Assembly: GCA_040389285.1 (NCBI GenBank)
Contig: JAZKAF010000086.1
Location: forward strand, 1-26,670
DNA length: 26,670 nt
DNA from: a candidate division FCPU426 bacterium
GTDB taxonomy: Bacteria; Oederibacteriota; JAJYGY01; DAIDJD01
Reading direction: 5' to 3'
Part shown: positions 10,151 through 22,920 of the stretch, piece by piece
Layout: every line of letters begins with the position of its first letter
Numbering within the stretch: position 1 is the stretch's first letter
Position numbers and translations under genes: made by a program
Notes under the pieces: model-generated
What the model was told of the DNA's origin: nothing
What the model saw: the letters and a program-made list of their open reading frames with translations, nothing else
Databases searched by the model: none

Positions 10151-12082
10151 TTGCGCCTTTGGTTGAAACTATGGTTTGCCTTGTGCTTGCCGTGCCAAGC
10201 CTATGCGGTCTGCACCGTGACCAGCGGCACCCTGTTGCTGGCCGCGGATGACACCGCCACCGTCTATTTGAACGGGGTCAGCATCACCAGCTGCAGTTAT
10301 TGCTGGAAAGGTCCTTCGCCCGCCCAATACCTGACCTACACCCTGAAAGCCGCGGACATCGCCTCGCTGAACGCCTCGGGCACGGGCGACAACATCATCG
10401 CCTTCTACAACACGGATCTGGGCGGGGTCTCTTCCGGGTCTTCCTGGGTCATGACCCTCAATTTTTCCGGCTGCGCCACCCAGTACGTGCAGTCGAACGG
10501 TTTTTGCACCACCACGAAGTACGCGGGCAACGCGGACAGCGGCTCCCCGCCCGTCACTTATCCAGCTGGCTGGGCGACTTATGCCTACAACGACAGCGCC
10601 TGGTCCGGGGTCTATAGCGCCGCCAATCCAGGCCTCTACAGCTGGATGACCTTCACCACGCCCTCCAACGTCAACTGGCTCTGGGGGACTTCCAGTTTCG
10701 CGGTCGTGACCAAGGGGGACGGATACCTTTTTCGCCAGAAATTCCGATTGGGCGATCCCTCGTATTGCCCGTTCACGCCACTGCCGACCCCCACCGCGGT
10801 GGGGCCGGCTCCTTCGCCAACCAGGACCTTCACGGCTTCGGCCGCGACCGCCACGCCGAGTAGGACGCGAAGTCCCACCGCGACGCCCAATTCCAGCCCC
10901 ACGAACACCCCCACACGCAGCCCGACGCCCAGCTGGACACCCACTTTGAGCGCCACCCAAACCTTTAGCCCCACGCCCAGCACGTCGCCGACGCGCTCGA
11001 TCACACCTTCCGCCAGCCCTACGCAGAGCTTCAGCAATTCGCCCACGCCCTCGTTCACGCCAACGCAGAGCTTCACCTTCACGGCCTCGCCCACGCCCAG
11101 CTCCACCGCCACGCCAACGCCGACTTACACCATGTCCCCGACCTTTTCGAACTCGCCGACGCCTACAGGGACTCAGACAGCCACGCCGACCTATACCCCG
11201 AGCCCAACGAACACGCCTTCCCCGACCTTTTCCGACTCGCCAACGCAAAGCTTCACCTTCACCGGCACGAAGACCTTCAGCGGCACCACGACCTTCAGCA
11301 ATTCGCCGACCGTGACACCCAGCAATACGCCGACGGCCACCTATTCCGGGACCGTGACCTTCACAAATTCCCCGACCGTGACGCCCAGCAACACGCCCAC
11401 GACCACTTATTCTGGGACCGCGACCTTCAGCCATTCGCCAACCCGCAGCCTGACCAACACGGAAAGCGCTAGCTACACGCCAACCCAAAGCTTCACCGAG
11501 ACGCCGACGGTGCCGGGTACGGCCACGGACTCGCCCACGCCGACCGAATCGGATACCTATACCGGCACCAAGACCTTCACGGACGCGCCGACGCTTACCG
11601 ACAGTCCCACAGATTCGCCCAGCTTCACGGAATCCGCCACGGCCACAGACTCTCCCACGGAAACCTTGACCAAGACGCCCAGTCCCACCAGGACCGCGAC
11701 GAAGGCCCCGACCGCCACCAGGACCATTACCCTGACCCGGACCGTGACTCGGACCTTCAGCGTGAGTCCCACCATGACGGACAAGACGCTGGTCTTCGAC
11801 ATCAAGGCCTTTTATCCCAACCCCTTTGACGATCATGGGGTCCTTTACTACACCCTAGGGCATGCCGCGGAGGTGGAATTGACCATCTACAATGTGGCTG
11901 GGGAACCCATCTGGCGTTACCGGGAGACCGGGCGCCAGGGTAATAACACTATTTTATGGAAGGGCTTGAATGAATGGGCAGGACGGGTGGCGAGTGGTAT
12001 CTATGTCATTCGGCTACAGGCCGTGGCTAGCGTTGGGGACCCGGGCCTGACCAAGTGGACCACGGTCTGCGTGGCGCGCTGA
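10151..12082 (+). CDS. secreted multidomain protein: signal peptide, ~190-aa N-terminal domain (possibly PA14/lectin-like), ~320-aa Pro/Thr/Ser-rich tandem-repeat linker, T9SS-type C-terminal sorting domain
   Basis: TTG start preceded by GAGG. The signal peptide is MRLWLKLWFALCLPCQAYA. The C-terminus (FYPNPFDD...VELTIYNVAGEPIW...ILWKGLNEWAGRVASGIYVIRLQA) fits the Por_Secre_tail / FlgD-Ig-like CTD pattern. The central region is low-complexity SPTPT/TFT repeats. Confidence 0.8.
   Translation: MRLWLKLWFALCLPCQAYAVCTVTSGTLLLAADDTATVYLNGVSITSCSYCWKGPSPAQYLTYTLKAADIASLNASGTGDNIIAFYNTDLGGVSSGSSWVMTLNFSGCATQYVQSNGFCTTTKYAGNADSGSPPVTYPAGWATYAYNDSAWSGVYSAANPGLYSWMTFTTPSNVNWLWGTSSFAVVTKGDGYLFRQKFRLGDPSYCPFTPLPTPTAVGPAPSPTRTFTASAATATPSRTRSPTATPNSSPTNTPTRSPTPSWTPTLSATQTFSPTPSTSPTRSITPSASPTQSFSNSPTPSFTPTQSFTFTASPTPSSTATPTPTYTMSPTFSNSPTPTGTQTATPTYTPSPTNTPSPTFSDSPTQSFTFTGTKTFSGTTTFSNSPTVTPSNTPTATYSGTVTFTNSPTVTPSNTPTTTYSGTATFSHSPTRSLTNTESASYTPTQSFTETPTVPGTATDSPTPTESDTYTGTKTFTDAPTLTDSPTDSPSFTESATATDSPTETLTKTPSPTRTATKAPTATRTITLTRTVTRTFSVSPTMTDKTLVFDIKAFYPNPFDDHGVLYYTLGHAAEVELTIYNVAGEPIWRYRETGRQGNNTILWKGLNEWAGRVASGIYVIRLQAVASVGDPGLTKWTTVCVAR
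11291..11440 (+). repeat. in-frame tandem repeat (~63 nt / 21 aa unit, ~2.4 copies) inside the PT-rich linker; part of a larger low-complexity region spanning ~10790-11790
   Basis: TFSNSPTVTPSNTPTATYSGT, then TFTNSPTVTPSNTPTTTYSGT, then TFSHSPT. Near-identical at the DNA level. Confidence 0.8.
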
Positions 12083-12089
12083 CCTAGGG

Positions 12090-13037
12090 TCAGAAACGCG
12101 CCTGAAGCAGGGTGAGGCGCGAGCTATCCTGGCTGATCATGGGCAAGGGCAGCCCGGCAGATAACTTTCCGTCTTCTAAATTCAAAAGCGATACCATCGG
12201 CTTGGGGCCGGGGTCCATGGCTAGGGCGATGATCGCGCCGACGCCGCCAAGGACAAAGAAGGTGATCCCCGCGGCCATCATGCCTTGTCCATCCGTATGC
12301 TGGCCGTAGCTGGCTTCGGACCAATAGGATCCCTCGCTGTATTTATTGTAATTCACGCCATCCCTGACGCCAGCGCTGGAATAGCTCTTAGCCCCATCCT
12401 CGATCAGCAGGCCGCTCACACTGAATATCAGGCCCAGTCCAAGGATCACTCCGCTGGTGATACCCACCACAGCTTGGCCGTCCCTACGTCCCTGCCACGA
12501 TTTCAAAGCGTCTTCGGAATTGGCGCGTTGCACGGCGCCGGCCGTGACCGCGGCCTTGGCCCGCTGTTCTTGCTGGGCTTCCAAGGCTCCTAAGCGGGCC
12601 AGGACCTTGTTGCGGTCCTCGGCCTCGGGATTGGAGGATAGGTAAAGGTTGAAGCTGTCCATGGCGCCCTTCGGATCCCCGGCCTTTTCCTGCACTAACC
12701 CTAAGTTGTAGTAAAGTTCCGGGATCCAGGGAGCGAGTAAGCTGGCCTTTTGATAGGCATCCACCGCGGGCAGGTATCCGGCAGGGCTGTCCGCGTTCTT
12801 GATCATGTAGGCGGCCTTGCCTTGGAGGATGGCGACCTGCTCAGGGGTCTCGGGCAAGGACTTCAAGCTTCCGGCCAGCTGAAGGATCTTCTTACGAAGT
12901 CCCATGTTCCCGGGATCTGACTGAAGGTCGCTGACGGCCTTTTCAAAATCCTCTTTTGTGCCGGCCTGGAGGGAGGGCCTGGCCGGGGCCAGCATGACAA
13001 GGCAAGCCAGGATCATTCGAAGGATTTTCGATTTCAT
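12090..13037 (-). CDS. exported/membrane protein with TPR-like helical region and C-terminal TM segments (hypothetical)
   Basis: Signal peptide MKSKILRMILACLVMLAPA. TPR-like motifs (YYNLGLVQEKAGDPKGAMDSFNLYL). Hydrophobic C-terminal stretches. AAGGA lies 6 nt upstream of the ATG. Confidence 0.6.
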   Translation of the reverse strand: MKSKILRMILACLVMLAPARPSLQAGTKEDFEKAVSDLQSDPGNMGLRKKILQLAGSLKSLPETPEQVAILQGKAAYMIKNADSPAGYLPAVDAYQKASLLAPWIPELYYNLGLVQEKAGDPKGAMDSFNLYLSSNPEAEDRNKVLARLGALEAQQEQRAKAAVTAGAVQRANSEDALKSWQGRRDGQAVVGITSGVILGLGLIFSVSGLLIEDGAKSYSSAGVRDGVNYNKYSEGSYWSEASYGQHTDGQGMMAAGITFFVLGGVGAIIALAMDPGPKPMVSLLNLEDGKLSAGLPLPMISQDSSRLTLLQARF

Positions 13038-13059
13038 AAAGGTCCTTTAAAAGAAGAGG

Positions 13060-13911
13060 TCAGTCTTCTGGCTTCATAGTGAGGAGCTTGCTGTCGCAGG
13101 GGATGCGATAGTCGTTGAAAGCCGCGGCGCTGAAACAGAGGTTGCCGCAAACAAAAGGAAAACCCGCAGGACAGCAAACGATCCTGCCGGTGGACTCTTT
13201 GCCAAAGGTGCCATGGGTGGCTTTGGCGTGGGCTTTGGCTTTTTCCCAGTCCTCAAAGGTCTTGGCCGCCTGGGAATCCCCGGGAAGCGGATCCTTGTAC
13301 AAGGGATTGACCACAGGCTTCAGCTTCGGTGGATGGAAGGGCTTGCGGGTCGGCAGCTTCTTCAGCTCCATGGGTCCGTCCGCGACTGCGTCTTTGAGGT
13401 CCGGTTTCCCCTCCATTTCGGCCAGCATGTCAGACTTCTCCGCTTCGAATTTTTTCTTACGCTCCGCTTCCTGAGCCTTCGCCTGTCTCTCGCCTTCCTG
13501 CTGCTGGCGGATCTGCTCGGCCTGTCGGGCCGGATCGGTCTTGCTGCCTTGGAGCACGCCGGCGACACCGACACCCATCAGTCCCAGGCCGATGGACTCG
13601 CCGCTTCCATGGACCAAGCCGAAGCTTATAGCGTCACCGCTGGACTTGAGTATCTCCGAAGTTCCCGACCCAAGGCCGGAATCAGCCCCAAGGGTCGAGC
13701 TTCCATCTTCATAACAGTCGATGTATTCACGGCGGATGCCGCGGTAGTACTCGACCTGCTTCCGGCAGTCCTCTACTTTTTCGTAGGGGCCGATCAGGGA
13801 GTTCCCGCCCAGCTTCTGCTCGCAATCCGGGCACTTGGAATACCAACCCGCGGACAGCGTCGAGGCTGTGAGGAGCAAAACCAAGGAGTAAAAAACTTTC
13901 TTCGGCGTCAT
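13060..13911 (-). CDS. secreted Cys-rich / Gly-rich / coiled-coil hypothetical protein
   Basis: Start chosen at MTPKK (13911), which gives a clean signal peptide (VFYSLVLLLTASTLSAG). The track ORF extends to a TTG at 13953. Cys clusters at both ends, a central Gly-rich segment and a charged helical segment. Only 22 nt upstream of the TPR gene, so probably one operon. Confidence 0.55.
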   Translation of the reverse strand: MTPKKVFYSLVLLLTASTLSAGWYSKCPDCEQKLGGNSLIGPYEKVEDCRKQVEYYRGIRREYIDCYEDGSSTLGADSGLGSGTSEILKSSGDAISFGLVHGSGESIGLGLMGVGVAGVLQGSKTDPARQAEQIRQQQEGERQAKAQEAERKKKFEAEKSDMLAEMEGKPDLKDAVADGPMELKKLPTRKPFHPPKLKPVVNPLYKDPLPGDSQAAKTFEDWEKAKAHAKATHGTFGKESTGRIVCCPAGFPFVCGNLCFSAAAFNDYRIPCDSKLLTMKPED

Positions 13912-14008
13912 GATATTTAGATTATATCGGTTTGATATAGGGGTGCGCTGCAAAAAAAATCGGGGTTCTTTCTATGAATTATTTAGCCTTATGACGATCC
14001 CATGGTCG

Positions 14009-15169
14009 TCAATGCCGGGGTAGCGGTTTTTCCGGCCTGATTCCCATAAGGAAGTGCTGGACGTCAAAGCAAGGCACCCCTTCGATCTTGTTAGGTAATG
14101 GGCCTGGAGCAAGCAACGCGACTTGGGCTTCGGGATAATCCCGCTGGAATGCCTTCAGGCCCGCCATATCCGCCGACTGAACTTTCCCTTTAGACTTTAC
14201 CTCGAATGCGTAAAGCCCAGCCTCACCAAATACCACAAAATCCACTTCCAGCCCGGCCCGAGTCCTCCAATAAAACAGCTCGTTTTTTCCCGGGGCAAAA
14301 GAAAGCCAAGCCCTTAGATGCTGTCCGACCAATCCCTCCAAGGCTCCCCCGCCAATTTCACGCCCGGAATCGAGAGGATTCCGTGGCCGGATGGCCTGGA
14401 AAACGCCGGCGTCAAAAAAGTAGAACTTCGGATGGGAGGCCAGAAGTCGTTTGGCCCTTTTCTCGAAAACATTGAGACGGTAGGCCAACATCATGTCTTC
14501 CAGCACATCCAAATAGCCCTCAACGCTCTTACGCGTTACGGAGCACTCGCGGGATAGATCGGTGAGGTTCAAATGGCCACCATGGCTCAATGACACCGCA
14601 TCCAGGAACCGGGAAAACGCCCCCAGGTCCCGGACGGACGCCTCCTCCCGAACCTCCTGTTGGATATAAAGGGACGCGTAGGAACGCAGGGTCTTCTCAG
14701 GCGACTTGGAAGCCAAGGCAAGCGGCAGCATGCCAGTGAGCACCGCAGTGGCCAGGTCAAAACGGGGGCCCAGTTCAGCCGCGAGATAGGGATGAAACTG
14801 CCGCCAGAGCAGGCGGCCGCCCAGCAAATTCACCCCCGCCCTTCTCAGTTTCCGCGCGCTGGATCCGGTAAGGATAAACTGCTTCCCTCGGCCCGACCCC
14901 TCCACAGACTGGTGCACCACATCCAAAAGCACCGGCGCCTTCTGGACTTCATCGATGATTATCGGCTGACCCACAGGCGCTTTGGCGATCTCATCCTTCA
15001 GGCGTTCCGGCCTGGAACTCAATTCCCTGAACAGTACAGGGTCCAGCAGATCCAGATACAGGGCCTTCGGGTAGGCGTGCCGAAGCCAGGTCGATTTCCC
15101 CGACCCTCGAGGGCCGAATAGGAAGTGGCTTTGATCCAGCTTTGGGATGAGACGTGTGAGGTAATTCAT
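14009..15169 (-). CDS. AAA+ ATPase, AAA_14 + DUF4143 architecture (COG1373-type)
   Basis: Walker A (GPRGSGKST) and Walker B (IIIDEV) motifs. The C-terminal region (WRTRAGLEVDFVV...AFEVKS) is typical of DUF4143. Confidence 0.85.
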   Translation of the reverse strand: MNYLTRLIPKLDQSHFLFGPRGSGKSTWLRHAYPKALYLDLLDPVLFRELSSRPERLKDEIAKAPVGQPIIIDEVQKAPVLLDVVHQSVEGSGRGKQFILTGSSARKLRRAGVNLLGGRLLWRQFHPYLAAELGPRFDLATAVLTGMLPLALASKSPEKTLRSYASLYIQQEVREEASVRDLGAFSRFLDAVSLSHGGHLNLTDLSRECSVTRKSVEGYLDVLEDMMLAYRLNVFEKRAKRLLASHPKFYFFDAGVFQAIRPRNPLDSGREIGGGALEGLVGQHLRAWLSFAPGKNELFYWRTRAGLEVDFVVFGEAGLYAFEVKSKGKVQSADMAGLKAFQRDYPEAQVALLAPGPLPNKIEGVPCFDVQHFLMGIRPEKPLPRH

Positions 15170-15173
15170 GGTG

Positions 15174-15206
15174 TTGCAATTTTAACCTAATAGGTTAAAT
15201 CTGCAA
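15174..15206. promoter_or_regulatory. promoter/operator of the AAA-DUF4143 gene: TTGCAG-N16-TAAAAT with a perfect 19-bp palindrome TTTAACCTA-a-TAGGTTAAA (15181-15199) in the spacer, flanked by TTGCA/TGCAA
   Basis: Read directly from the sequence. The palindrome ends 11 nt upstream of the ATG at 15169. The -10-like TAAAAT lies in the right arm. Confidence 0.5.
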
Positions 15207-15272
15207 CAACGAAGTGCCAGTAACGGTTGGAATTGGATGCATAGCCAAAATCCTATCAATGCCTATGCTTTG

Positions 15273-15743
15273 CTACCAAAGATCCCGACCCGCTGCTGGG
15301 TCATAGCCTGGGAAAGCGGTTTTAGCGCGTCGGAGGGTCCATGCCTTGACCAAAAAGATGGCCCCGGATCCTATAAGATATACCAGCCCCAATCCCGCCA
15401 GTTGGGTCGCAGCGCCTGCCTGACGACCTTGAAGAACTCGGACGGTCAGACCCATCCCCCCGAAAACCGCCGCATAACCGCCATAGATCACAAAGCGGTG
15501 AACCCAGCGCATGAGCTTGAAAGCCAGGATGCCCCATGCGGCCAGGGAAAGGGCTGCGGAAGCGGCCAAAAAGAACGATGGCCAAAAGGGAGCTTGGGAC
15601 GAAGGCAACAACGCCGCGGCCACCGCTGACGCCATCCCGGCCGCCACGCTCATCACCAGGGCCCACCGAAGGGACCAAGTGAAGCCTAGGCAAGCAGCGC
15701 ACTGAAGCAAGCAACCCAACACCGCAAGCAGTATTACGTACAT
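15273..15743 (-). CDS. hypothetical integral membrane protein (about 4 TM helices)
   Basis: Hydrophobic helices throughout. ATG at 15743 with GAGGAA 6 nt upstream. The overlapping alternative-frame ORF 15322..15795 is Arg/Gly-rich and judged spurious. Confidence 0.55.
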   Translation of the reverse strand: MYVILLAVLGCLLQCAACLGFTWSLRWALVMSVAAGMASAVAAALLPSSQAPFWPSFFLAASAALSLAAWGILAFKLMRWVHRFVIYGGYAAVFGGMGLTVRVLQGRQAGAATQLAGLGLVYLIGSGAIFLVKAWTLRRAKTAFPGYDPAAGRDLW

Positions 15744-15885
15744 CACGAGTTCCTCGAAATAATGACCTTAGACACTCTGTAAAAAGATGGGCCATTTTAA
15801 ATCGGGTTTCTTATGGAAAAGCTTCCATATATTCCTAACCCCAGCCTAACTATCACGTTGGTCCAATTGCCAAGGGCTGTTCGGC

Positions 15886-16128
15886 TCAATGAATAATGTG
15901 ACTTTCCCCACCAAAAGCAATCGCAATCAAAATAAACACGGGAACAAATACAAAAATCGCCGCTCCCATATAACCAATTATGCCAACAGCTGTCAGACCT
16001 GTCACAAGAAGATAAAAAGCCATCAATGCGAAAATCACCAACGGCTTCCTTACCATCTTTAGAAATAAGGCCGTCCCACGTTTTCGTTTTTCCACATAGT
16101 GTTTCTGCCCGTTCGGAACAATTTTCAC
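15886..16128 (-). CDS. small 2-TM membrane protein (80 aa, hypothetical)
   Basis: GTG start with GGAGA 5 nt upstream, 14 nt after the stop of the upstream gene. Strongly hydrophobic (VIFALMAFYLLVTGLTAVGIIGYMGAAIFVFVPVFILIAIAF). Preferred over the overlapping 122-aa ORF 15797..16165. Confidence 0.5.
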   Translation of the reverse strand: MKIVPNGQKHYVEKRKRGTALFLKMVRKPLVIFALMAFYLLVTGLTAVGIIGYMGAAIFVFVPVFILIAIAFGGESHIIH

Positions 16129-16142
16129 TCATGTCTCCAGGG

Positions 16143-16514
16143 TCAAAGAGCCGATATTCTTTCAAATTCTGAATCCTTCGTTACATCAACGCCGATCAGC
16201 TTATTTCCGCTAACGATGTATTCGAAGCAATTCACACAGCCGAAGTAAATGTTTCCATCTCTTCCACATTCGTATTTGTCGGAATGTGAATAAGAAACAG
16301 TACGGCCATCTGCTTTCAGGTAGCTCGTGATCAACTGGCCATTCGCAAATTTGATAGTGGCTGGATCGCCTTTATAGCGACCCTTCCAATGGGGCCCATC
16401 CATGCAATGATGAAGCATAAATTCCGCTTGTTTTTGGTGATGTGACAACCAGAACAAGGTTCCCGCAAGAAATAGGAGTCCCGCAACCGATAGAGTAATT
16501 AATAAGGCCTTCAT
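16143..16514 (-). CDS. small exported/membrane-anchored hypothetical protein (123 aa)
   Basis: N-terminal signal/anchor MKALLITLSVAGLLFLAGTLFWL, then a ~95-aa Cys-containing soluble domain. AT-rich codon usage. No clear Shine-Dalgarno. Confidence 0.5.
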   Translation of the reverse strand: MKALLITLSVAGLLFLAGTLFWLSHHQKQAEFMLHHCMDGPHWKGRYKGDPATIKFANGQLITSYLKADGRTVSYSHSDKYECGRDGNIYFGCVNCFEYIVSGNKLIGVDVTKDSEFERISAL

Positions 16515-16543
16515 GAAAAATACTTCAAATTCGTGTTCATAAT

Positions 16544-16966
16544 TTATTTTGACTCATTGGCGATTGGGAAAATGGCCCTTCGAAAACCATCCTCATAAAT
16601 TTCAATCGTTCCCTGTTCCCTACATTCGATGACGACGAGCTTCATATTTTTTTCAGACCGAAAATATATATCCATTTTGGCGGCACTTAGTTTTCCATCT
16701 TGAAAATAGCTAACATCGAATGTCGCTCCCTCTCCCATTGGCTTTAACTTTTTCTTTTCGACGCCACCGTTGGATATATTGCCGAAACTTTCTAAGCCAT
16801 CCTCAAGGACCAAACTTACTTTTGTAATATCTTTTCCCGATTTATTTCTAACTTCAACGGTCACTCCGGATCCCCAATTTAAGATTTCCCAGAGGGAAAA
16901 TAGCATCAGGATGCAAATTCCAATGGTTATGAAAAATGTTTTAATTACTCTTACTGCTACGTTCAC
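16544..16966 (-). CDS. small membrane-anchored hypothetical protein (140 aa)
   Basis: GTG start with GGAGG 5 nt upstream. N-terminal TM (FFITIGICILMLFSLW), then a ~110-aa soluble domain. Confidence 0.55.
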   Translation of the reverse strand: MNVAVRVIKTFFITIGICILMLFSLWEILNWGSGVTVEVRNKSGKDITKVSLVLEDGLESFGNISNGGVEKKKLKPMGEGATFDVSYFQDGKLSAAKMDIYFRSEKNMKLVVIECREQGTIEIYEDGFRRAIFPIANESK

Positions 16967-17185
16967 GTCACCTCCGCTTTCGGCCCGACCGACTTCGCGA
17001 CATCAATCAGATCTCCTCCAGGGCCGTAATTTGATTTCTCTAGATGATAAATGAAATTGAAAAATATGTCGCTGAAGGCCCTTGTGGCGCAGTGCTATTT
17101 CTTAAATTGTTTCAACCTGCGATATTTATGAGGCAGTGTTATAAGGAGGAAGAGAAATAACGGGGGACTTTTTAGGGCATCCAAA

Positions 17186-17221
17186 GCATCGTGGTGAGGA
17201 CGGATGGGGTCGGGGTGGGTG
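17186..17221. repeat. G-rich intergenic repeat, copy 1 (GCATCGTGGTGAGGACGGATGGGGTCGGGGTGGGTG), starting right after the stop of the 113-aa gene
   Basis: About 84% identical to the copy at 17591-17622. A GC-rich block inside an AT-rich island. Four G-tracts. Confidence 0.6.
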
Positions 17222-17233
17222 TTTTATCTTTTC

Positions 17234-17575
17234 CTAGTTGGGCGCAAAAAATCCAGATGGCAAAAAATAGATCATGACTATTGTTGCCAATGTTAAATAA
17301 AAAAAGATAAATCCAATTACATCTGACTTTACATCCTTGCGATAAAAATATGTTGAGATCTGAAAACATTGGACTAAAAAAAGAATTGAACCTAGAGGCA
17401 GACTGACCAGCCACATAAACAAGTAGTTGTAGCCCCAAAACATCGTTTGTGAGTCGCTATGTGAGCCAAATACCGCATACATCATTAAATACAGTGGTAG
17501 AGCAAAAATGAATGTAATTATGCTAAGAGTTCTGTTGGGGATAAATTCAGGGAATATCATTTTTTTTAAGGTCAT
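17234..17575 (-). CDS. small polytopic membrane protein (113 aa, 3-4 TM, hypothetical)
   Basis: ATG with AGGGAG 6 nt upstream. Hydrophobic helices. Aromatic-rich. Confidence 0.6.
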   Translation of the reverse strand: MTLKKMIFPEFIPNRTLSIITFIFALPLYLMMYAVFGSHSDSQTMFWGYNYLFMWLVSLPLGSILFLVQCFQISTYFYRKDVKSDVIGFIFFYLTLATIVMIYFLPSGFFAPN

Positions 17576-17590
17576 TTGATCTCCCTAACG

Positions 17591-17622
17591 GCATCGTGGC
17601 GCGAATGGGTGGGGTCTGGGTG
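17591..17622. repeat. G-rich intergenic repeat, copy 2 (GCATCGTGGCGCGAATGGGTGGGGTCTGGGTG), 13 nt after the stop of the 379-aa gene and just before the Shine-Dalgarno of the 113-aa gene
   Basis: Aligns with copy 1. Identical 9-nt head GCATCGTGG and identical GGGGTC...GGGTG tail. Confidence 0.6.
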
Positions 17623-17638
17623 TAAGCAAAGACTGTTA

Positions 17639-18778
17639 TTATTTCAGCGGAGCAATAACCTTTTCCCAAAGCTCCTTCTTCTTTCCACCCTCTTTTCTCA
17701 TAAAATCATCGACTTTCTGCTTTAGTTTGGGATCTTCTATTTCAAGGTAGCTCTTTTTAATTAATTCAGGATATTCGTCTGTGACATCGATCATAGAATT
17801 GCCGTTCCACCTGAAGATATTGGGCCAATATAGTTTCTTATAAATATAGGGTTCAAAACTTTGAATTTCAGTTATCGTGTGGTCATAAGAAGCTCGAATT
17901 TCCGAAACACGACCCATCGACTTGACCCGAAATTCACCATTCACAGTTCTCACAAAGTAAGTTTCAGAAAACCCTGCGCCTTGTCCACCAGCGGCCCTAA
18001 ATATAGCCACTTTCTTTTTCGTTCCATCAATAGGAAGTATCTTTGCGATCTCCATACACCCATTCTCTATCCAGTCCCCGCCAATAAGGAACGATTTTAG
18101 ATTTCCATTAATATTCCCAACAATCAAATTAGCCCAACAGTACCCGTTACCCATGAGGAATACATAATCCATTTCTCCATCGCCATTTAGGTCCGTAACT
18201 TCACGATGTTCATTCAAATATGGATCGTTCAGAAAAACTTCGACGGGCGAATCGGGGGAGTCCCGTTGGATCTTCGCTAGCAATACCATCGCATACTGAG
18301 ATCTTGCTTCGCGGTCATTGTCCAATGACGCACGTATTAGCGTTATCATCTCCCGATACGAAACAATTTTTTCGTCATTGTTTTTGGAAGAATCAATCCT
18401 ATCCCAGAGCACTTCTACCGCTTTTCCCATTGCTTCACCCATTTTCCGACTGATTTCAACGTCGCCAAAAATTGTAATGTCATAAGAATTTTCAGTCTTA
18501 CAAGCCTCTAAATATAGATGGGCCTTTTTCAAAATATCTTTCTCAGCGTCACCTTTAGTGAGATATTCTTGGCGTTTAATTTTAGAAATAGATTCTTCGT
18601 TTTGATTAATTTTATCTGACGAATCATTGGATAAAGAATCCGGCCAAAGATTCACACCTTGCGCCAGGCTAACGCCAATCATTAATACAAATAATACCGA
18701 ATGGATTTTCTTTACCAATTTTCCTCCATGTCCGGCATCATCCATCGCATCAATCGCATAATAGTTATTCGGTTTCAT
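17639..18778 (-). CDS. exported hypothetical protein (379 aa) with FG-GAP/EF-hand-like DxNGDGxxD motif
   Basis: Signal/anchor KKIHSVLFVLMIGVSLAQG. Motif TDLNGDGEMDYVFLMGNGY. Lys-rich C-terminus. Its ATG overlaps the stop of the upstream gene in an ATGA arrangement (translational coupling). Confidence 0.6.
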   Translation of the reverse strand: MKPNNYYAIDAMDDAGHGGKLVKKIHSVLFVLMIGVSLAQGVNLWPDSLSNDSSDKINQNEESISKIKRQEYLTKGDAEKDILKKAHLYLEACKTENSYDITIFGDVEISRKMGEAMGKAVEVLWDRIDSSKNNDEKIVSYREMITLIRASLDNDREARSQYAMVLLAKIQRDSPDSPVEVFLNDPYLNEHREVTDLNGDGEMDYVFLMGNGYCWANLIVGNINGNLKSFLIGGDWIENGCMEIAKILPIDGTKKKVAIFRAAGGQGAGFSETYFVRTVNGEFRVKSMGRVSEIRASYDHTITEIQSFEPYIYKKLYWPNIFRWNGNSMIDVTDEYPELIKKSYLEIEDPKLKQKVDDFMRKEGGKKKELWEKVIAPLK

Positions 18779-19362
18779 CCGCAGGCATCCATGTTGTCAA
18801 AATTTTTATCAACTTCTGCCCAACCGATTTCTCCCGTTTTTATTTGGATTTTTACCCACCACACTTCTTCGTTACGGTGGTCTTCGATCACCCGCGCCCA
18901 GCAGGCTTCGGAGGGAATAGCGCAGTTTTCATCTTGTTCATAAATATCAAGTTCATCCGAAATTATTTCCCCTCGATGCCAAACTTTATGCCAACCCTCT
19001 CCTAAATTCGTCAGAAGATAAATTATTTCTCCCACTTCATAGCTCTCGGTGCGGTCACTTTTTCTGCCGAAAACAACTCTCATTTTCGTGGGAACAACAT
19101 AAACAATACCTGTCAACGCTCTTACTTTCATTCCGTCCTTGAGGTGACCAGTTATCTTCTTTCCGTGGGGCTTATCGAACAGTGTTGTGGTTTTCGTGAC
19201 TAACCAATCGCGATAAACACAACATTCAAAGGGACACGCGCCTTCGTCCACAAAAATAGCTGGTGGCTTTTCCGAATCATAGGAATCGGCGCTTGAAGAT
19301 AGAGGTGAAATGGCGAAACAAGCCAAAATAAAACCGGCAAAGACAGCGCTTCTTATATTCAC
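18775..19362 (-). CDS. secreted protein with two SH3b-like motifs (195 aa, hypothetical)
   Basis: GTG start with GGAGGA 4 nt upstream. Signal peptide AVFAGFILACFAISPLSSSA. The G-x-GW-x-KV-x-x-G motifs (GEGWHKVWHRGEI, GEIGWAEVD) are typical of bacterial SH3. Confidence 0.55.
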   Translation of the reverse strand: MNIRSAVFAGFILACFAISPLSSSADSYDSEKPPAIFVDEGACPFECCVYRDWLVTKTTTLFDKPHGKKITGHLKDGMKVRALTGIVYVVPTKMRVVFGRKSDRTESYEVGEIIYLLTNLGEGWHKVWHRGEIISDELDIYEQDENCAIPSEACWARVIEDHRNEEVWWVKIQIKTGEIGWAEVDKNFDNMDACG

Positions 19363-19398
19363 CTATTCCTCCAGATTCCCATGGCCTTTGAAGGACTC

Positions 19399-19845
19399 CT
19401 AAACTTCCAACGCTTCAGCCTGTTTTGTCGGCCCAGAAGATGGTCGCCGCTTCTTGGTTAATTGCTCGTAAAGCCTGCCCACACCCACGGGGTCCGGCGA
19501 GAGGCAGGATTGGATAAAAAGCCGTAGATCTTTTTCCGTAGACCATTGCATTCCCGTGGCATGGACGCCGGAGCGTTCCCATTTGTGGACTGCCACATGG
19601 CTAACCCCGAACTTTTCCGCGAACGTCTGCTGGGTCAAATTGAAATGCAGGCGCACGAAGCGCACCTCCTGGCCATGCAGGGGACGCTCTAAACGACTGA
19701 GCACCCGTAACACCTTAGGCGCCAAGCGCGCATAGTCCACTTTGGGTGCCCATTCGCCCCGTACCTTCACCATCGTGACCTGGCCCAAGTGAACCGGAAA
19801 TCCAAGGCTATGGTCGATATAATCTTTCGCTTTCTTGGTTTCCAT
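19399..19845 (-). CDS. MqsA-like HTH (XRE-type) antitoxin; N-terminal domain lacks the Zn-binding cysteines
   Basis: The C-terminal segment EVRFVRLHFNLTQQTFAEKFGVSHVAVHKWERSG aligns with the MqsA HTH (VR..L.LTQ..A...G......YE.G). It lies 6 nt downstream of the toxin gene. There are no Cys pairs in the N-terminal 70 aa. Confidence 0.6.
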   Translation of the reverse strand: METKKAKDYIDHSLGFPVHLGQVTMVKVRGEWAPKVDYARLAPKVLRVLSRLERPLHGQEVRFVRLHFNLTQQTFAEKFGVSHVAVHKWERSGVHATGMQWSTEKDLRLFIQSCLSPDPVGVGRLYEQLTKKRRPSSGPTKQAEALEV

Positions 19846-19851
19846 GGCCCT

Positions 19852-20154
19852 CTAGGCTCCCAAATCAACGACGGTAATGATCAACATAGCACCTTCAAAT
19901 CCCACCGCCACCCTCAACTCCCTTCCATCCAGGGTCTTGCCGCGGATCGCATAATTCCAAGCAGAAAAACGCTCGACGTAATCGTCCTTGGCTTTTTCGT
20001 GATGCCCCAAGGTCAGGACTTGCAAGATCTCCGGCCATATGACGCCCCTCTCCAGCATGCGCTGCCGAGCGTGGTGGGTAACGACGTAGTTCCCGCCTTG
20101 CACGGCGTTAAGGACCGCTTGCGATACAGCGGGAAGTTTTGGGGAGCGTTTCAT
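19852..20154 (-). CDS. DUF4258-like type II toxin (100 aa)
   Basis: Motif THHARQRMLERGV, followed by a beta-rich C-terminus. Size and motif fit DUF4258, the family commonly paired with MqsA-like antitoxins. The promoter sits directly on the ATG, so the transcript is probably leaderless. Confidence 0.55.
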   Translation of the reverse strand: MKRSPKLPAVSQAVLNAVQGGNYVVTHHARQRMLERGVIWPEILQVLTLGHHEKAKDDYVERFSAWNYAIRGKTLDGRELRVAVGFEGAMLIITVVDLGA

Positions 20155-20158
20155 TGGA

Positions 20159-20187
20159 ATTTTAACTCAGTTAAAATCTTCATGCAA
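20159..20187. promoter_or_regulatory. TA operon promoter/operator: TTGCAT-N17-TAAAAT with a perfect 19-bp palindrome ATTTTAACT-c-AGTTAAAAT (20159-20177) across the spacer and -10
   Basis: Read directly from the sequence. The palindrome ends 5 nt from the toxin ATG. No Shine-Dalgarno lies between it and the ATG. Confidence 0.5.
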
Positions 20188-20196
20188 GTCCAAGAC

Positions 20197-20235
20197 AAAA
20201 AAATAGCGGACCCAATCAAAAGATCGGATCCGCTA
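20197..20235 (-). terminator. rho-independent terminator of the tRNA-Val gene
   Basis: On the minus strand: UAGCGGAUCC, a 12-nt loop, GGGUCCGCUA, then U7. A 10-bp stem including one G-U pair, 9 nt after the tRNA CCA end. Confidence 0.7.
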
Positions 20236-20244
20236 TTTAGGGAA

Positions 20245-20321
20245 TGGTGGGCTTGGAGGGATTCGAACCCCCGACTTCCTCCCTGTGAAGAAGGCACTCT
20301 AACCAGCTGAGTTACAAGCCC
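20245..20321 (-). tRNA. tRNA-Val (anticodon CAC), CCA encoded
   Basis: The reverse complement folds as a cloverleaf. Acceptor stem GGGCTTG/CAAGCCC, D-stem ACTC/GAGT, anticodon stem CCTTC/GGAGG with loop TTCACAG, T-arm GGGGG-TTCGAAT-CCCTC, discriminator A and CCA. 77 nt in total. Confidence 0.9.
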
Positions 20322-20335
20322 CTGAAAGAGAACAG

Positions 20336-20364
20336 ATTATGCCCTTTTGACCCCCTGATTTCAA
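20336..20364 (-). promoter_or_regulatory. sigma70-type promoter of tRNA-Val (TTGAAA-N17-CATAAT), ~15 nt upstream of the mature 5' end
   Basis: Read on the minus strand: TTGAAA, a 17-nt spacer (tcagggggtcaaaaggg), then CATAAT. Located between the 5'-nucleotidase stop and the tRNA. Confidence 0.55.
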
Positions 20365-20379
20365 GGAGCCAAAATCCAC

Positions 20380-21831
20380 CTATTCTGCGGCGGGACCGAT
20401 GCGGGGGGCCAGGTCGAGAAGGGGGTCTAGCGGCTTTTTTTCGCTGCTGGGATGTTTTTTAAGCCAAGCCAGGATGGGGTCGCGCCAATCGTTGGCCACC
20501 AGCACGGGCGAAGGATCGGCCGCTTTTAATAGTTCGCTGGTGGCGATCATATAGTCATTCACCAGCACCAGGTACGTGGCCTTGGGATCTATTTTGCGGC
20601 CGGTTTTTTTGAGCGTAAAGTGGCGGCCTTTTTTGGATAAACCGGCCATGCCCATCAACTGATCGGCTTTTTTGGGAAGATATTTGGAAAGCTGGCGTCC
20701 GGTCATCTTAACGCGCAGCAGCTTGTCGTCAAAGGGCAGCAAGCTGACCAGCGTTCCCCGGTTAAGGGGCCCAGGGGGCAGGTCCTGGCGCAGGGCGTGC
20801 TGGTTCACGAGCACCACGTCGGAAGTCGGATCCATCTCGGCCCAAGCGTCGCAGACAAAGTTCAGCACGCCCCAGGGACGGGTCAGCGGCGCCGCAAGAT
20901 AGGCTAACGGGCGCGAATAGTCTGGATCGCCTTCCAAACGGGCCCGCCAGCGCGACACTACCGCCTGGACCGCAGGGTCGGCTCTGGGGTGCTCCTGTCT
21001 TAGCCAAACCTGTTTCGACGCGAGCACCTTGGTCCTGCCGCTTGCGGCTTCGTAGTCCAGGTCGATACGGCTGTAGGCCTTCCACCATTCGCCGGAATTG
21101 ACGATCCAGGTGCCGCTGTTCATCTCGCGCAGCTGCCCCAGCTCGTGCGAATGGCCGCCCATCATCAGCGGGATATTCAGGTCGGCCATGTCGCGGGCCA
21201 TGTCGCGCAGCTCGTTCAAGGGCACATGGGCCAGCACGAGCAGCACCTGGGCCCCGGCCGCGCGGGCCTTGGGCGCCCAGGTACGGATGCTTTCGGCGTA
21301 ATTGGTGGCTTGAAGCGAGTCGTAGGGCGGCAGTTCACTGGTGATGAGGCCGATGATGCCGATCTTGATCCCGTTTTTTTCAAGGATGCAAAAAGGTTCA
21401 GCTGCGGGCGACCAGGGCGTAGGACCCGAAGCCTGAAGATTGGCGGCCAGGAAGGGAAAGACGGCCAGCTTGCGCAAAGCTTTCAGCCCATCCACGCCAA
21501 AGTCGAATTCATGGTTCCCTAAAGCCGAGGCGTCGTAGCCCATGGCGTTCATGACCTCGACCGCGGGCAAGCCCTTGTAAAGCGTGCTCAAGGCCGGACC
21601 CGTGGCGACGTCGCCCGCGCTCAAGACCAAGAAATCCTCGGGTTTATAGCCTTCGTGGTCTTTCCACGCAGCGGCCATCTCGGCGGCTCCGCCTAAGGTG
21701 GAGCCGTCCACGGTGAGGGGCTGCAACCAGCCGTGCATGTCGCCGGTGACCAGGATGTGGATGGGTTTGGCATGGGCTTGAACGCCAAGCAGGAGGACTA
21801 AAGCTAAGATCGGGAGCAGGATTTTTTTCAC
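20380..21831 (-). CDS. periplasmic bifunctional metallophosphatase / 5'-nucleotidase (UshA family)
   Basis: GTG start with GAGGGGA upstream. Signal peptide. N-terminal calcineurin-like motifs (GDMHG, GDVATG, GNHEFD, GGHSH) followed by a 5'-nucleotidase C-domain. Confidence 0.85.
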   Translation of the reverse strand: MKKILLPILALVLLLGVQAHAKPIHILVTGDMHGWLQPLTVDGSTLGGAAEMAAAWKDHEGYKPEDFLVLSAGDVATGPALSTLYKGLPAVEVMNAMGYDASALGNHEFDFGVDGLKALRKLAVFPFLAANLQASGPTPWSPAAEPFCILEKNGIKIGIIGLITSELPPYDSLQATNYAESIRTWAPKARAAGAQVLLVLAHVPLNELRDMARDMADLNIPLMMGGHSHELGQLREMNSGTWIVNSGEWWKAYSRIDLDYEAASGRTKVLASKQVWLRQEHPRADPAVQAVVSRWRARLEGDPDYSRPLAYLAAPLTRPWGVLNFVCDAWAEMDPTSDVVLVNQHALRQDLPPGPLNRGTLVSLLPFDDKLLRVKMTGRQLSKYLPKKADQLMGMAGLSKKGRHFTLKKTGRKIDPKATYLVLVNDYMIATSELLKAADPSPVLVANDWRDPILAWLKKHPSSEKKPLDPLLDLAPRIGPAAE

Positions 21832-21846
21832 GTATCCCCTCTGGAA

Positions 21847-22920
21847 CTAAAAGATCTCGCCAAACTGGATCTGGAAGGTGCTCTGGTCATATCCGTAGCC
21901 CAATTCCACGCGCGCTTTTTGGCCCCAGCCGGGCGGCAAGCCGACGCGCAAGCCGGCTTGGCCAGTCAGCTTCAACTGCCTGAAGCTGTCATCGGCGATG
22001 TCGCCGAAGTCGGCGGACACGTTGACGGACACGTATTTATTGAGATACCAGCGCAGTTCTTCCTGAAGCACGAAGAATGTTTTGCCGCGGAAACGGTTGT
22101 CCTTGTAGCCGCGCAGGGCGTCCAGCCCGCCAAGGCGGTAGCGGAAAAGGTAGCCAGGCTCGCCCTGGGTCAGGGCGCCTAGAAAATGCTGAGCTAGCAC
22201 CAGGCGGCGGCGGATGGTTCTGAAGCGGCGCAGGTCCACTTGCAGCTGCACAAAGGTCTCGGCGCCCGGCAGGGTGCTCCAGGCCTCAGGACAGGCCAGC
22301 AAGCTCATTTGAAAATAGTCGCCCTTGCGCGGGTTCAAGATCCTGTCGCGGTTGTCCCATTCCACTTTCAGGCCCCAGGCGTTGCTGCTCTCGTCCGGAA
22401 AAAGCCGGGTCGGATCCCCAGGGACAGGGCTGCCGATGCGCTCGACGCCGGTTTCAACGCGCGAACGGTAGTCGTTGAATACGCCGGCCCGAAAATGCGG
22501 GAACACTTTGTAGAGAATAGTGGGCTTGAATTCAACGTGGTAGATCGAAGTGCGCCGGGGATTGTCTGGCGCGGTGAGGTCGCCTTCGCCGTAATAGTTA
22601 TCAAAGGCCCTCTCGGCCAGGCCGTGAAAGCCGTAGAACCAACGGCCAGCGGTGCGTTGTTCGTAGTTAAGGGTGGCGCTGTGAAAATCGTTGAGGTTGC
22701 TGACGCCGAAAAGGCCGGCGTTGATGCCGGGCTCGGTCTCTTTGTAAAGGAAGCCCGCGCCGCCGAACTGCCATCCGGTTTTATCGTCATAGCCAGCGAA
22801 AGGAATGGCGGAATAAGTCAGCTCATTAAGGTCCACGTCGTAAAAATCAAGGTCTTCCGCCGGCCTGGCGGCCTTGGCACCGAACAACAATAATAATAGA
22901 AAGGCCGCGCGAAGTGGCAA
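21847..22920 (-). CDS. Omp85/BamA-family outer-membrane beta-barrel (surface antigen D15 domain) without POTRA repeats
   Basis: Signal peptide. The YRLGGLDALRGY motif (GG...RGY), then VNVSADFGDI, GLRVGLPPGWG, and a terminal aromatic residue (FQIQFGEIF). At 357 aa it is too short for POTRA domains. Confidence 0.65.
   Translation of the reverse strand: MPLRAAFLLLLLFGAKAARPAEDLDFYDVDLNELTYSAIPFAGYDDKTGWQFGGAGFLYKETEPGINAGLFGVSNLNDFHSATLNYEQRTAGRWFYGFHGLAERAFDNYYGEGDLTAPDNPRRTSIYHVEFKPTILYKVFPHFRAGVFNDYRSRVETGVERIGSPVPGDPTRLFPDESSNAWGLKVEWDNRDRILNPRKGDYFQMSLLACPEAWSTLPGAETFVQLQVDLRRFRTIRRRLVLAQHFLGALTQGEPGYLFRYRLGGLDALRGYKDNRFRGKTFFVLQEELRWYLNKYVSVNVSADFGDIADDSFRQLKLTGQAGLRVGLPPGWGQKARVELGYGYDQSTFQIQFGEIF

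Follow-up and report, generated by a model that had tools for sequence, protein, structure and literature searches.

An AT-rich, compositionally foreign islet of six predicted envelope-protein genes near tRNA-Val in a candidate-division FCPU426 bacterium

Gene content and organization of the AT-rich block

The window analyzed here is a 26,670-nt stretch of DNA (contig JAZKAF010000086.1, assembly GCA_040389285.1), in which an AT-rich block lies downstream of a tRNA-Val gene (Table 1). The block contains six ORFs, named here by the length of their products. Two claims that the preliminary description of this DNA makes about them were confirmed: the ORF listing placed all six in the same orientation on the minus strand, and hydropathy assigned a signal peptide or a transmembrane (TM) segment to each product. 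With targeting signals in six of six products, the envelope association proposed earlier is likewise supported. The p195 and p379 genes overlap at an ATGA, with the p379 start lying over the p195 stop, and the remaining tight gaps measure 14 and 29 nt, exactly as had been described.

Two or three transcription units are probable, namely p195-p379, p113, and p140-p123-p80, and the first of these may be read through from the toxin-antitoxin (TA) operon. A promoter-like match was located at 17072-17044 within the long non-coding gap; such matches are no more frequent in this region than chance would give. The p113 ORF is bracketed by two C-rich repeats, the only copies in the window, which are direct repeats instead of imperfect palindromes and do not fold stably (z of -0.03 and +1.2). 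This putative membrane ORF is the least certain of the six genes and is absent from the NCBI annotation, in which locus tags V4498_05345 and V4498_05350 are consecutive. For p140, an alternative gene caller set the start 20 codons later.

Table 1. Positions of the block, its genes and the flanking features in window coordinates.
Feature	Position	Strand	Remarks
tRNA-Val(cac)	20245..20321	-	own terminator at 20238-20201
TA-like pair	19399..20154	-	outside the block; DUF4258 toxin-like 19852-20154, HTH/MqsA-like antitoxin-like 19399-19845
AT-rich foreign islet, whole	15790..19400	-	delimited by GC, GC3 and tetranucleotide signature
p195, 195 aa	18775..19362	-	Sec signal peptide; GTG start with GGAGG Shine-Dalgarno sequence
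p379, 379 aa	17639..18778	-	one N-terminal TM anchor (hydropathy)
C-rich imperfect direct repeat, 32 nt	17591..17622	-	copy upstream of p113; 81% identical to 17186-17217
p113, 113 aa	17234..17575	-	putative; 3 TM (hydropathy); AGGGAG Shine-Dalgarno sequence upstream
C-rich imperfect direct repeat, 32 nt	17186..17217	-	copy downstream of p113; 81% identical to 17591-17622
Non-coding gap, 267 nt	16967..17233	-	no ORF of at least 50 aa inside; probable transcription-unit break
p140, 140 aa	16544..16966	-	N-terminal TM anchor and beta-rich soluble part; GTG start, GGAGGTG Shine-Dalgarno sequence
p123, 123 aa	16143..16514	-	N-terminal TM anchor and 4-Cys soluble part
p80, 80 aa	15886..16128	-	basic 2-TM protein
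157-aa 4-TM ORF	15273..15746	-	native GC; between block and ATPase gene
AAA_14+DUF4143 ATPase	14009..15169	-	PADLOC candidate PDC-S01

Composition of the block and integrity of its junctions

The block had been described as far lower in GC than its flanks, and the computed values of 0.413 for the block and 0.602 for the remaining window (z = -5.3) bear this out. In a scan with windows of 500 nt, all 32 windows within the block were found at 0.374-0.44 and all 217 outside it at 0.504-0.674. A uniform composition was also rejected at the level of codon usage, as the six block ORFs showed a GC3 of 0.39-0.44 versus 0.71-0.88 in ten housekeeping genes, and a CAI of 0.27-0.40 when these housekeeping genes (0.57-0.77 themselves) served as the reference. 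The GC shift is hence synonymous and does not stem from amino-acid content. Tetranucleotide usage of the block correlated with that of native sequence at only 0.59, compared with 0.83-0.91 for nine equal-sized control chunks, while the immediate flanks (TA pair and ATPase) carry a native-like signature (r 0.875). The edges of the block are sharp, at about 15,700-15,790 and about 19,400, and each lies in intergenic DNA. By three independent measures (GC, GC3/CAI, and tetranucleotides), the block DNA is compositionally foreign; horizontal acquisition is therefore the natural reading, and transfer would account for the composition.

As the sequence comes from a metagenome-derived MAG contig and its composition changes abruptly at either block end, an assembly chimera, in which AT-rich DNA of another organism was misjoined into the contig, has to be considered. 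However, an independent second assembler yielded the identical sequence: the Logan assembly of run SRR26324622 matches the window at 100% identity across 15702-22173 and thus covers the two GC junctions, with a margin of only ~90 nt at the left one. A chimera would furthermore take two misjoins, the second leading back into sequence of the same native signature. The junctions are without repeats and cleanly intergenic, with the adjoining ORFs and Shine-Dalgarno sequences intact, and we regard a misassembly as highly improbable.

The six products and their relatives

None of the six proteins matched Pfam, NCBIfam, PADLOC or PHROGs, nor phage and plasmid records. The PADLOC-DB v2 search gave zero of six matches even at E ≤ 1, and only the neighboring ATPase was recovered (PDC-S01). 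The earlier statement that nothing at the locus matches a described system thus holds for these four libraries. The broader statement that no product has a recognizable family stands for the curated libraries but not beyond them, as p195 and p379 do have relatives.

About 24 secreted, Cys-rich proteins make up the unnamed family of p195, which is itself Cys-rich with predicted Sec secretion and contains no catalytic domain. An N-terminal GACPFECC motif and a C-terminal DACG end are invariant in the family. Its structural model is an SH3-like beta-barrel that superposes on bacterial SH3b domains, and on the strength of this model we count the SH3b fold as established. On Pfam SH3_3 (PF08239), p195 scores 10.6 bits, below the gathering cut-off of 27, and two of its 23 homologues carry a precomputed PF08239 hit. 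Compared with the SH3b (SH3_3/SH3_5-type) cell-wall-binding domains of NlpC/P60 peptidases, autolysins, and endolysins, p195 differs in lacking an enzyme domain, in its own invariant motif and end, and in its sub-cut-off SH3_3 score. The protein would be exported by Sec, with disulfides between the invariant Cys residues probably stabilizing the fold, and would act as a non-catalytic SH3b-type binding module whose ligand is most likely peptidoglycan or another envelope glycan.

The p379 family is very rare, with 11 relatives among 1.84 billion representatives. The protein comprises a TM anchor (residues 21-38), a helical region (52-183), a beta domain (191-331), and C-terminal helices. The Ca-binding-like motif DLNGDGEMD noted earlier lies in an FG-GAP-like DxNGDG loop of the beta domain, and its FG-GAP type is indicated by borderline Pfam and weak PDB hits: p379 itself does not match Pfam FG-GAP/FG-GAP_3, one relative (P0004) scores 26.9 bits at a cut-off of 26.9 with the other relatives below, and the weak PDB matches are the FG-GAP propellers YesW, YesX, and CRTAC1. 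What p379 has in common with the Ca-binding beta-propeller repeats of the FG-GAP/VCBS type is the DxDGDG..E loop. Elsewhere, the domain occurs in fusions with TPR or with propellers of the NHL or PQQ type and therefore behaves like an autonomous extracytoplasmic module. We infer that the single N-terminal helix anchors p379 in the inner membrane, so that the helical domain and the FG-GAP-like, probably Ca-binding beta domain would face the periplasm, and that its translation is coupled to that of p195.

For p113, p140, p123, and p80 no relatives were detected; the lone broad protein search was saturated and missed even the queries, so their orphan status is provisional. Three of them (p140, p123, and p80) form singleton clusters, and the search of p140 against PDB was negative as well.

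Flanks, alternative explanations and origin of the block

The preliminary description had placed the block between a TA module next to tRNA-Val and an AAA+DUF4143 ATPase. These flanks are indeed present, but the 157-aa ORF intervenes before the ATPase. The TA pair scored 34.6 bits on PF14076 (cut-off 25), 22.8 bits on HTH_3 (cut-off 23), and an E value of 2e-8 on TIGR03830, which is below the cut-off; its GC3 of 0.63-0.66 is intermediate, and its tetranucleotide signature is native-like. Behind this pair, the block begins ~0.9 kb (about 850 nt) downstream of tRNA-Val. A scan of ~30 ORFs of the 26.7-kb contig revealed neither a Phage_integrase nor a transposase domain, no second copy of the last 22 nt of tRNA-Val occurs near the block at up to 5 mismatches, and no boundary repeat of the block is longer than 9 nt. 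The "classic" island layout claimed before is consequently not supported, with the TA pair separating the block from the tRNA and with neither integrase nor att repeat. The block resembles tRNA-proximal genomic islets in its dropped GC, GC3 and oligonucleotide signature, its cargo of hypothetical genes, and its location less than 1 kb from a tRNA gene and beside TA and defence-like genes, but differs from them in lacking an integrase, att direct repeats and contiguity with the tRNA 3' end. A flanking 5'-nucleotidase has its best relative at 39% identity in GTDB representatives and at 44% in JGI metagenomes, and none of its relatives in either set is accompanied by tRNA-Val or syntenic neighbors. 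In integron gene-cassette arrays, too, small ORFs lie in one orientation, their functions are unknown, many of the products are exported and the composition is foreign. However, IntI is missing, the gaps of -4, 14, and 29 nt are too short for attC, no attC-like site occurs on the contig, and the repeats flanking p113 differ from attC in being direct and non-folding.

Genomic contexts were compared for five homologues each of p195 and p379, ten in all with ±4 kb and several on short contigs. Across these ten contexts, the two families never co-occurred, no neighboring gene recurred, and none resembled p80, p123, p140 or p113; instead, the homologues were surrounded by housekeeping or unrelated genes. 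They also match the GC of their own hosts (e.g., 0.615 vs 0.607 and 0.666 vs 0.696). The terms "cassette" and "accessory system" used previously are therefore not upheld, as p195 and p379 occur singly elsewhere. However, non-conservation is weak evidence here because four genes are without detected relatives and the contexts number only ten.

The low GC of the small genes recalls the orphan immunity arrays known as rAID (2019, as described in PMC12247911), for which an upstream tyrosine recombinase, conserved intergenic motifs, and two or more short genes in the same orientation with a GC below 41% are the criteria (PMC12247911). In an acquired interbacterial-defence cluster of this kind, each small protein would neutralize an incoming toxin acting on periplasm or membrane (T6SS, Rhs or CDI effector, or bacteriocin). 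The likeness extends to co-oriented short low-GC genes of unknown function, with three of the six below 41% (p113, p140, and p379 at 0.345-0.397; p195, p123, and p80 at 0.41-0.44), and to a repeated intergenic motif, although around p113 only; the host is not one of the Bacteroidales, and the comparison is an analogy only. Upstream of the block lie a TA pair and tRNA-Val in place of a tyrosine recombinase, which was not found in the ~30 ORFs scanned either. No motif is common to all intergenic regions, with most gaps at -4 to 29 nt, and no immunity family was matched in Pfam even at E ≤ 1, or in NCBIfam. The contig contains no toxin, Rhs, CdiA or T6SS gene, the phylum is a different one, and the ten contexts of homologues are neither arrays nor toxin-immunity loci. 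We hence consider an orphan immunity array quite unlikely. A prophage remnant, i.e., a decayed lysis or superinfection-exclusion cassette with holin-like and spanin-like proteins and an SH3b cell-wall-binding module, is very improbable. There was no significant PHROG match (0/6), tblastn against 50,697 phage records returned nothing at E ≤ 1, IMG/VR contained no relatives of the five queries used (p195, p379, p113, p140, and p123), and for p379 a BFVD search at E ≤ 0.001 found no similar fold, all of which largely refutes a phage-derived cassette. Phage structural, integrase, and repressor genes are absent from the contig, and the non-catalytic p195 has homologues that are chromosomal stand-alone genes.

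Several observations run counter to reading the block as a patchwork. On the assumption that roughly one protein in three is exported or membrane-bound, envelope targeting of six of six products has a chance probability of ~0.1%, which may point to a shared theme or shared selection. The tight spacing with its one translational coupling and the GC3 uniform over the six genes would fit one co-transferred, possibly co-functional unit, and the flanking TA pair and PDC-S01 candidate-defence ATPase resemble a defence hotspot. All of this would suit a single co-functional, undescribed envelope module for surface remodeling, phage exclusion, or membrane abortive infection that was acquired whole into such a hotspot. 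However, neither the whole unit nor any gene pair is conserved in the searched data, none of the six matches PADLOC, and the block is interrupted by the 267-nt gap and by the repeat-bracketed, possibly separately inserted p113; such a module is thus unlikely. The same applies to its more specific form, in which a recombinase-less orphan-immunity array or phage-exclusion set, with p195 and p379 acting at the cell wall as a coupled pair, would have been co-transferred and captured in the TA/PDC-S01 hotspot, and which we regard as doubtful.

With no sign of the six genes working together, the block is therefore best interpreted as an islet of the ordinary kind, gained by horizontal transfer. We find it reasonably probable that its envelope-protein genes are a patchwork of cargo, acquired horizontally into a variable stretch close to tRNA-Val, and not a conserved multi-gene machine. 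The genes would then be independent cargo, passed from a donor with roughly 40% GC to a candidate-division FCPU426 bacterium with roughly 60% GC.

Composition, genes and internal structure of the AT-rich block

The six-gene block has a GC content of 41.3%, compared with 60.2% in the rest of the window. All 500-nt windows inside it range from 0.374 to 0.44 GC and all those outside from 0.504 to 0.674 (z = -5.3), and at each end the composition switches within about 100 nt of intergenic sequence. The GC shift is synonymous: the six block ORFs have GC3 values of 0.39-0.44 and CAI values of 0.27-0.40, while ten housekeeping genes (including ThyA, RhaA, RhaB, ABC-F, SPFH and MsrAB) reach 0.71-0.88 and 0.57-0.77, respectively. 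The tetranucleotide correlation with native sequence is r = 0.59 for the block and 0.83-0.91 for nine native chunks of equal size. The preliminary description of a sharply bounded low-GC block was therefore borne out by three measures (GC, GC3/CAI and tetranucleotide signature), and the uniform composition that would have spoken against an island was computed and rejected. By composition, the DNA of the block is foreign.

Features of the contig discussed in the text (window coordinates)
Feature	Position	Strand	Remark
643-aa secreted protein	10151-12082	plus	P/T/S-rich linker
66-nt tandem repeat	11281-11450		
Outer stretch, ATPase side	12751-15789		
AAA_14+DUF4143 ATPase	14009-15169		
Palindrome copy	15181-15199		12 nt upstream of ATPase start codon
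Two overlapping 157-aa ORFs	15273-15795	minus	different frames
157-aa ORF, 4-TM frame	15273-15746	minus	native GC
AT-rich block	15790-19400		six ORFs
p80	15886-16128	minus	80 aa, 2 TM
p123	16143-16514	minus	123 aa, one N-terminal anchor
p140	16544-16966	minus	140 aa, one N-terminal anchor
32-nt repeat copy	17186-17217		
p113	17234-17575	minus	113 aa, 3 TM
32-nt repeat copy	17591-17622		
p379	17639-18778	minus	379 aa, one N-terminal anchor
p195	18775-19362	minus	195 aa, signal peptide
TA pair	19399-20154		DUF4258 and HTH/MqsA-like genes
Outer stretch, tRNA side	19401-20244		
Palindrome copy	20161-20175		6 nt upstream of DUF4258 start codon
tRNA-Val(cac)	20245-20321		own terminator

The gene arrangement, with six minus-strand ORFs, one ATGA overlap and gaps of 14 and 29 nt, matches what had been described before, and a hydropathy scan confirmed a signal or TM segment in all six products. 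The p113 ORF is absent from the NCBI annotation. For p140, a rival start lies 20 codons downstream; the GTG start with a GGAGGTG Shine-Dalgarno sequence leaves the TM helix whole. As a correction to the earlier account, the ATPase gene is separated from the block by a 157-aa ORF with four TM segments and native GC. This ORF is the more plausible of two overlapping frames. Its exact sequence is missing from the protein collection, which means that annotations differ in where they start it or in whether they call it at all.

None of the six proteins gave a significant hit in Pfam, NCBIfam, PADLOC or PHROGs (E<=1), and for these curated libraries the statement that no described system or recognisable family is present holds. 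Searches of PDB sequences with the two family alignments (A2, A3), p123 and p140 returned only noise, and Rfam found only the tRNA. The four small proteins p80, p123, p140 and p113 are singletons at 90% clustering and lack matches in plasmid and phage records; p123, p140 and p113 also lack them in IMG/VR, and p123 and p140 in the PDB. Their orphan status is therefore likely.

The p195 and p379 genes are translationally coupled. No terminator separates them from the antitoxin gene 36 nt upstream, and transcription from the TA promoter may thus continue into them. A gap of 63 nt leads to p113 and one of 267 nt to p140, p123 and p80, which are spaced by 29 and 14 nt. The p113 ORF is flanked by a C-rich imperfect direct repeat of 32 nt (81% identity, two copies only), which may mark a separate insertion; an attC or terminator function was rejected, since the repeats do not fold. 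Promoter and terminator predictions did not exceed chance, with the exception of the terminator of the tRNA.

Flanks and integrity of the locus

The window is the entire 26,670-bp contig of an NCBI MAG listed as 'candidate division FCPU426 bacterium', in which the genes across the block carry locus tags V4498_05335 to 05360. Only one other record contains them, a 6,472-bp Logan assembly of run SRR26324622, whose sequence matches window positions 15702-22173 at 100% identity and includes both junctions. An assembly chimera, in which the block would have been joined to the contig artificially, is very unlikely, because a second, independent assembly arrived at the same sequence over both junctions.

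On one side, the block is bordered by the TA pair and the tRNA-Val gene, and on the other, beyond the 157-aa ORF, by the ATPase, which matches the PADLOC candidate PDC-S01. The layout had been called that of a classic island. This applies only in part. The foreign composition fits the picture, but the block lies apart from the tRNA, with the TA pair in between. The approximately 30 contig ORFs that were scanned yielded no integrase or transposase domain, and there is neither a second copy of the tRNA 3' end nor a sequence of more than 9 nt common to both boundaries. In the search for an empty site, relatives of the adjacent 5'-nucleotidase reached at best 39% identity among 185,579 GTDB species genomes and 44% in JGI metagenomes, and tRNA-Val and synteny were absent there.

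GC3 is intermediate (0.63-0.66) in the TA pair and on the ATPase side, and their tetranucleotide signature is native-like (r 0.875). The two outer stretches as a whole, which carry a TPR protein, a 297-aa Cys-rich protein, the DUF4143 ATPase, the 157-aa membrane ORF and the TA pair, have a GC content of 0.51-0.60 and a GC3 of 0.63-0.73, below the rest of the contig, but share this native-like signature. They may represent an older, ameliorated variable region that was later entered by the AT-rich block. Exactly two copies of the palindrome TTTAAC-N(3-7)-GTTAAA are present in the 26.7-kb window (0 expected from 100 shuffles). They lie upstream of the DUF4258 and ATPase genes and may serve the HTH antitoxin as a common operator. 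Between them, they enclose the block together with the 157-aa membrane ORF, as if an insertion had split a co-regulated pair.

Further away, a 643-aa secreted protein contains a low-complexity linker of about 330 aa, which accounts for a GC skew of -0.3 to -0.4 at 10750-11750 and for the 66-nt tandem repeat. The protein has no Pfam match; by eye, its C-terminal 'FYPNPF...' beta domain resembles a T9SS/FlgD-Ig-type sorting domain. The 555-aa ORF running antisense to it is likely to be spurious.

Relatives of p195 and p379

Five genomic contexts were compared for the p195 family (L003, L005, L006, L172, L173) and five for the p379 family (L002, L089, L090, L091, L174). The two families co-occur in none of the ten, no neighbour family recurs within either set (all-against-all ORFs, +/-4 kb), and relatives of p80, p123, p140 and p113 were not found there by phmmer at maximum sensitivity. 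The sole neighbour matches between loci were an epimerase pair, common to one locus of the p379 family and one of the p195 family, and a single short match of antisense ORFs. The surrounding genes include IspDF, DnaB, Mla and Tat genes as well as genes for polysaccharide synthesis. The homologues follow the GC content of their own hosts (0.615 vs 0.607, 0.666 vs 0.696 and 0.373 vs 0.406) and are therefore resident genes in those hosts. Against these ten contexts, the six-gene arrangement is unique to this contig, and conservation lends a multi-gene system no support; the contexts are few and short and four of the genes lack relatives altogether, which limits this argument.

In two of the five p195 contexts, the family member (L172, 6001-6594; L173, 4798-5391) lies among runs of small genes without a Pfam match, and a tyrosine integrase is located 3 kb away in L172. 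Elsewhere, too, the p195 family may therefore be carried within variable regions; the two loci share no neighbours. In other organisms, the p379-type domain is fused C-terminally to an NHL propeller or N-terminally to a PQQ propeller, or follows TPR repeats (P0002, P0003, P0006), and behaves as a mobile extracytoplasmic module. The P0002 gene (L002, 1036-3102) is adjoined by a BrnT/CopG-type TA pair.

The two unnamed families are modest by-products of some value and candidates for registration as new domain families. The p195 family is conserved and comprises secreted SH3b-like proteins that carry an invariant GACPFECC motif and terminate in DACG, and the p379 family is a very rare extracytoplasmic domain family with the motifs GGNGAG and YWPxI(Y/F)xWxG.

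Origin and significance of the block

The best supported explanation, and probably the correct one, is a horizontally acquired AT-rich islet. Its envelope-protein cargo genes would be independent of one another, and it would sit near tRNA-Val in a variable region with a defence flavour. That the six genes form one undescribed envelope module is unlikely. Envelope targeting of all six products points most strongly to a shared theme and keeps both this and an immunity reading alive, but the absence of joint p195 and p379 contexts and of any recurring neighbour leaves the proposed accessory system unsupported. Marginally less probable again is an array of orphan immunity genes. The block resembles the arrays defined as rAID (PMC12247911) in the size of its genes, their co-orientation and their low GC; it lacks the recombinase, the shared intergenic motifs and any immunity family. 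If it were a recombinase-less immunity or exclusion array, acquired interbacterial-defence clusters would extend beyond Bacteroidales. A phage remnant is considered very improbable; neither tblastn with the six ORFs against plasmid and phage records nor scans of IMG/VR, for which the family alignments of p195 and p379 and the proteins p123, p140 and p113 served as queries, gave a match.

The feature is real and was correctly described, yet it is biologically ordinary, an islet of hypothetical genes that is foreign by composition. On present evidence it exemplifies ordinary horizontal acquisition of hypothetical envelope-protein genes in the barely sampled candidate phylum FCPU426.
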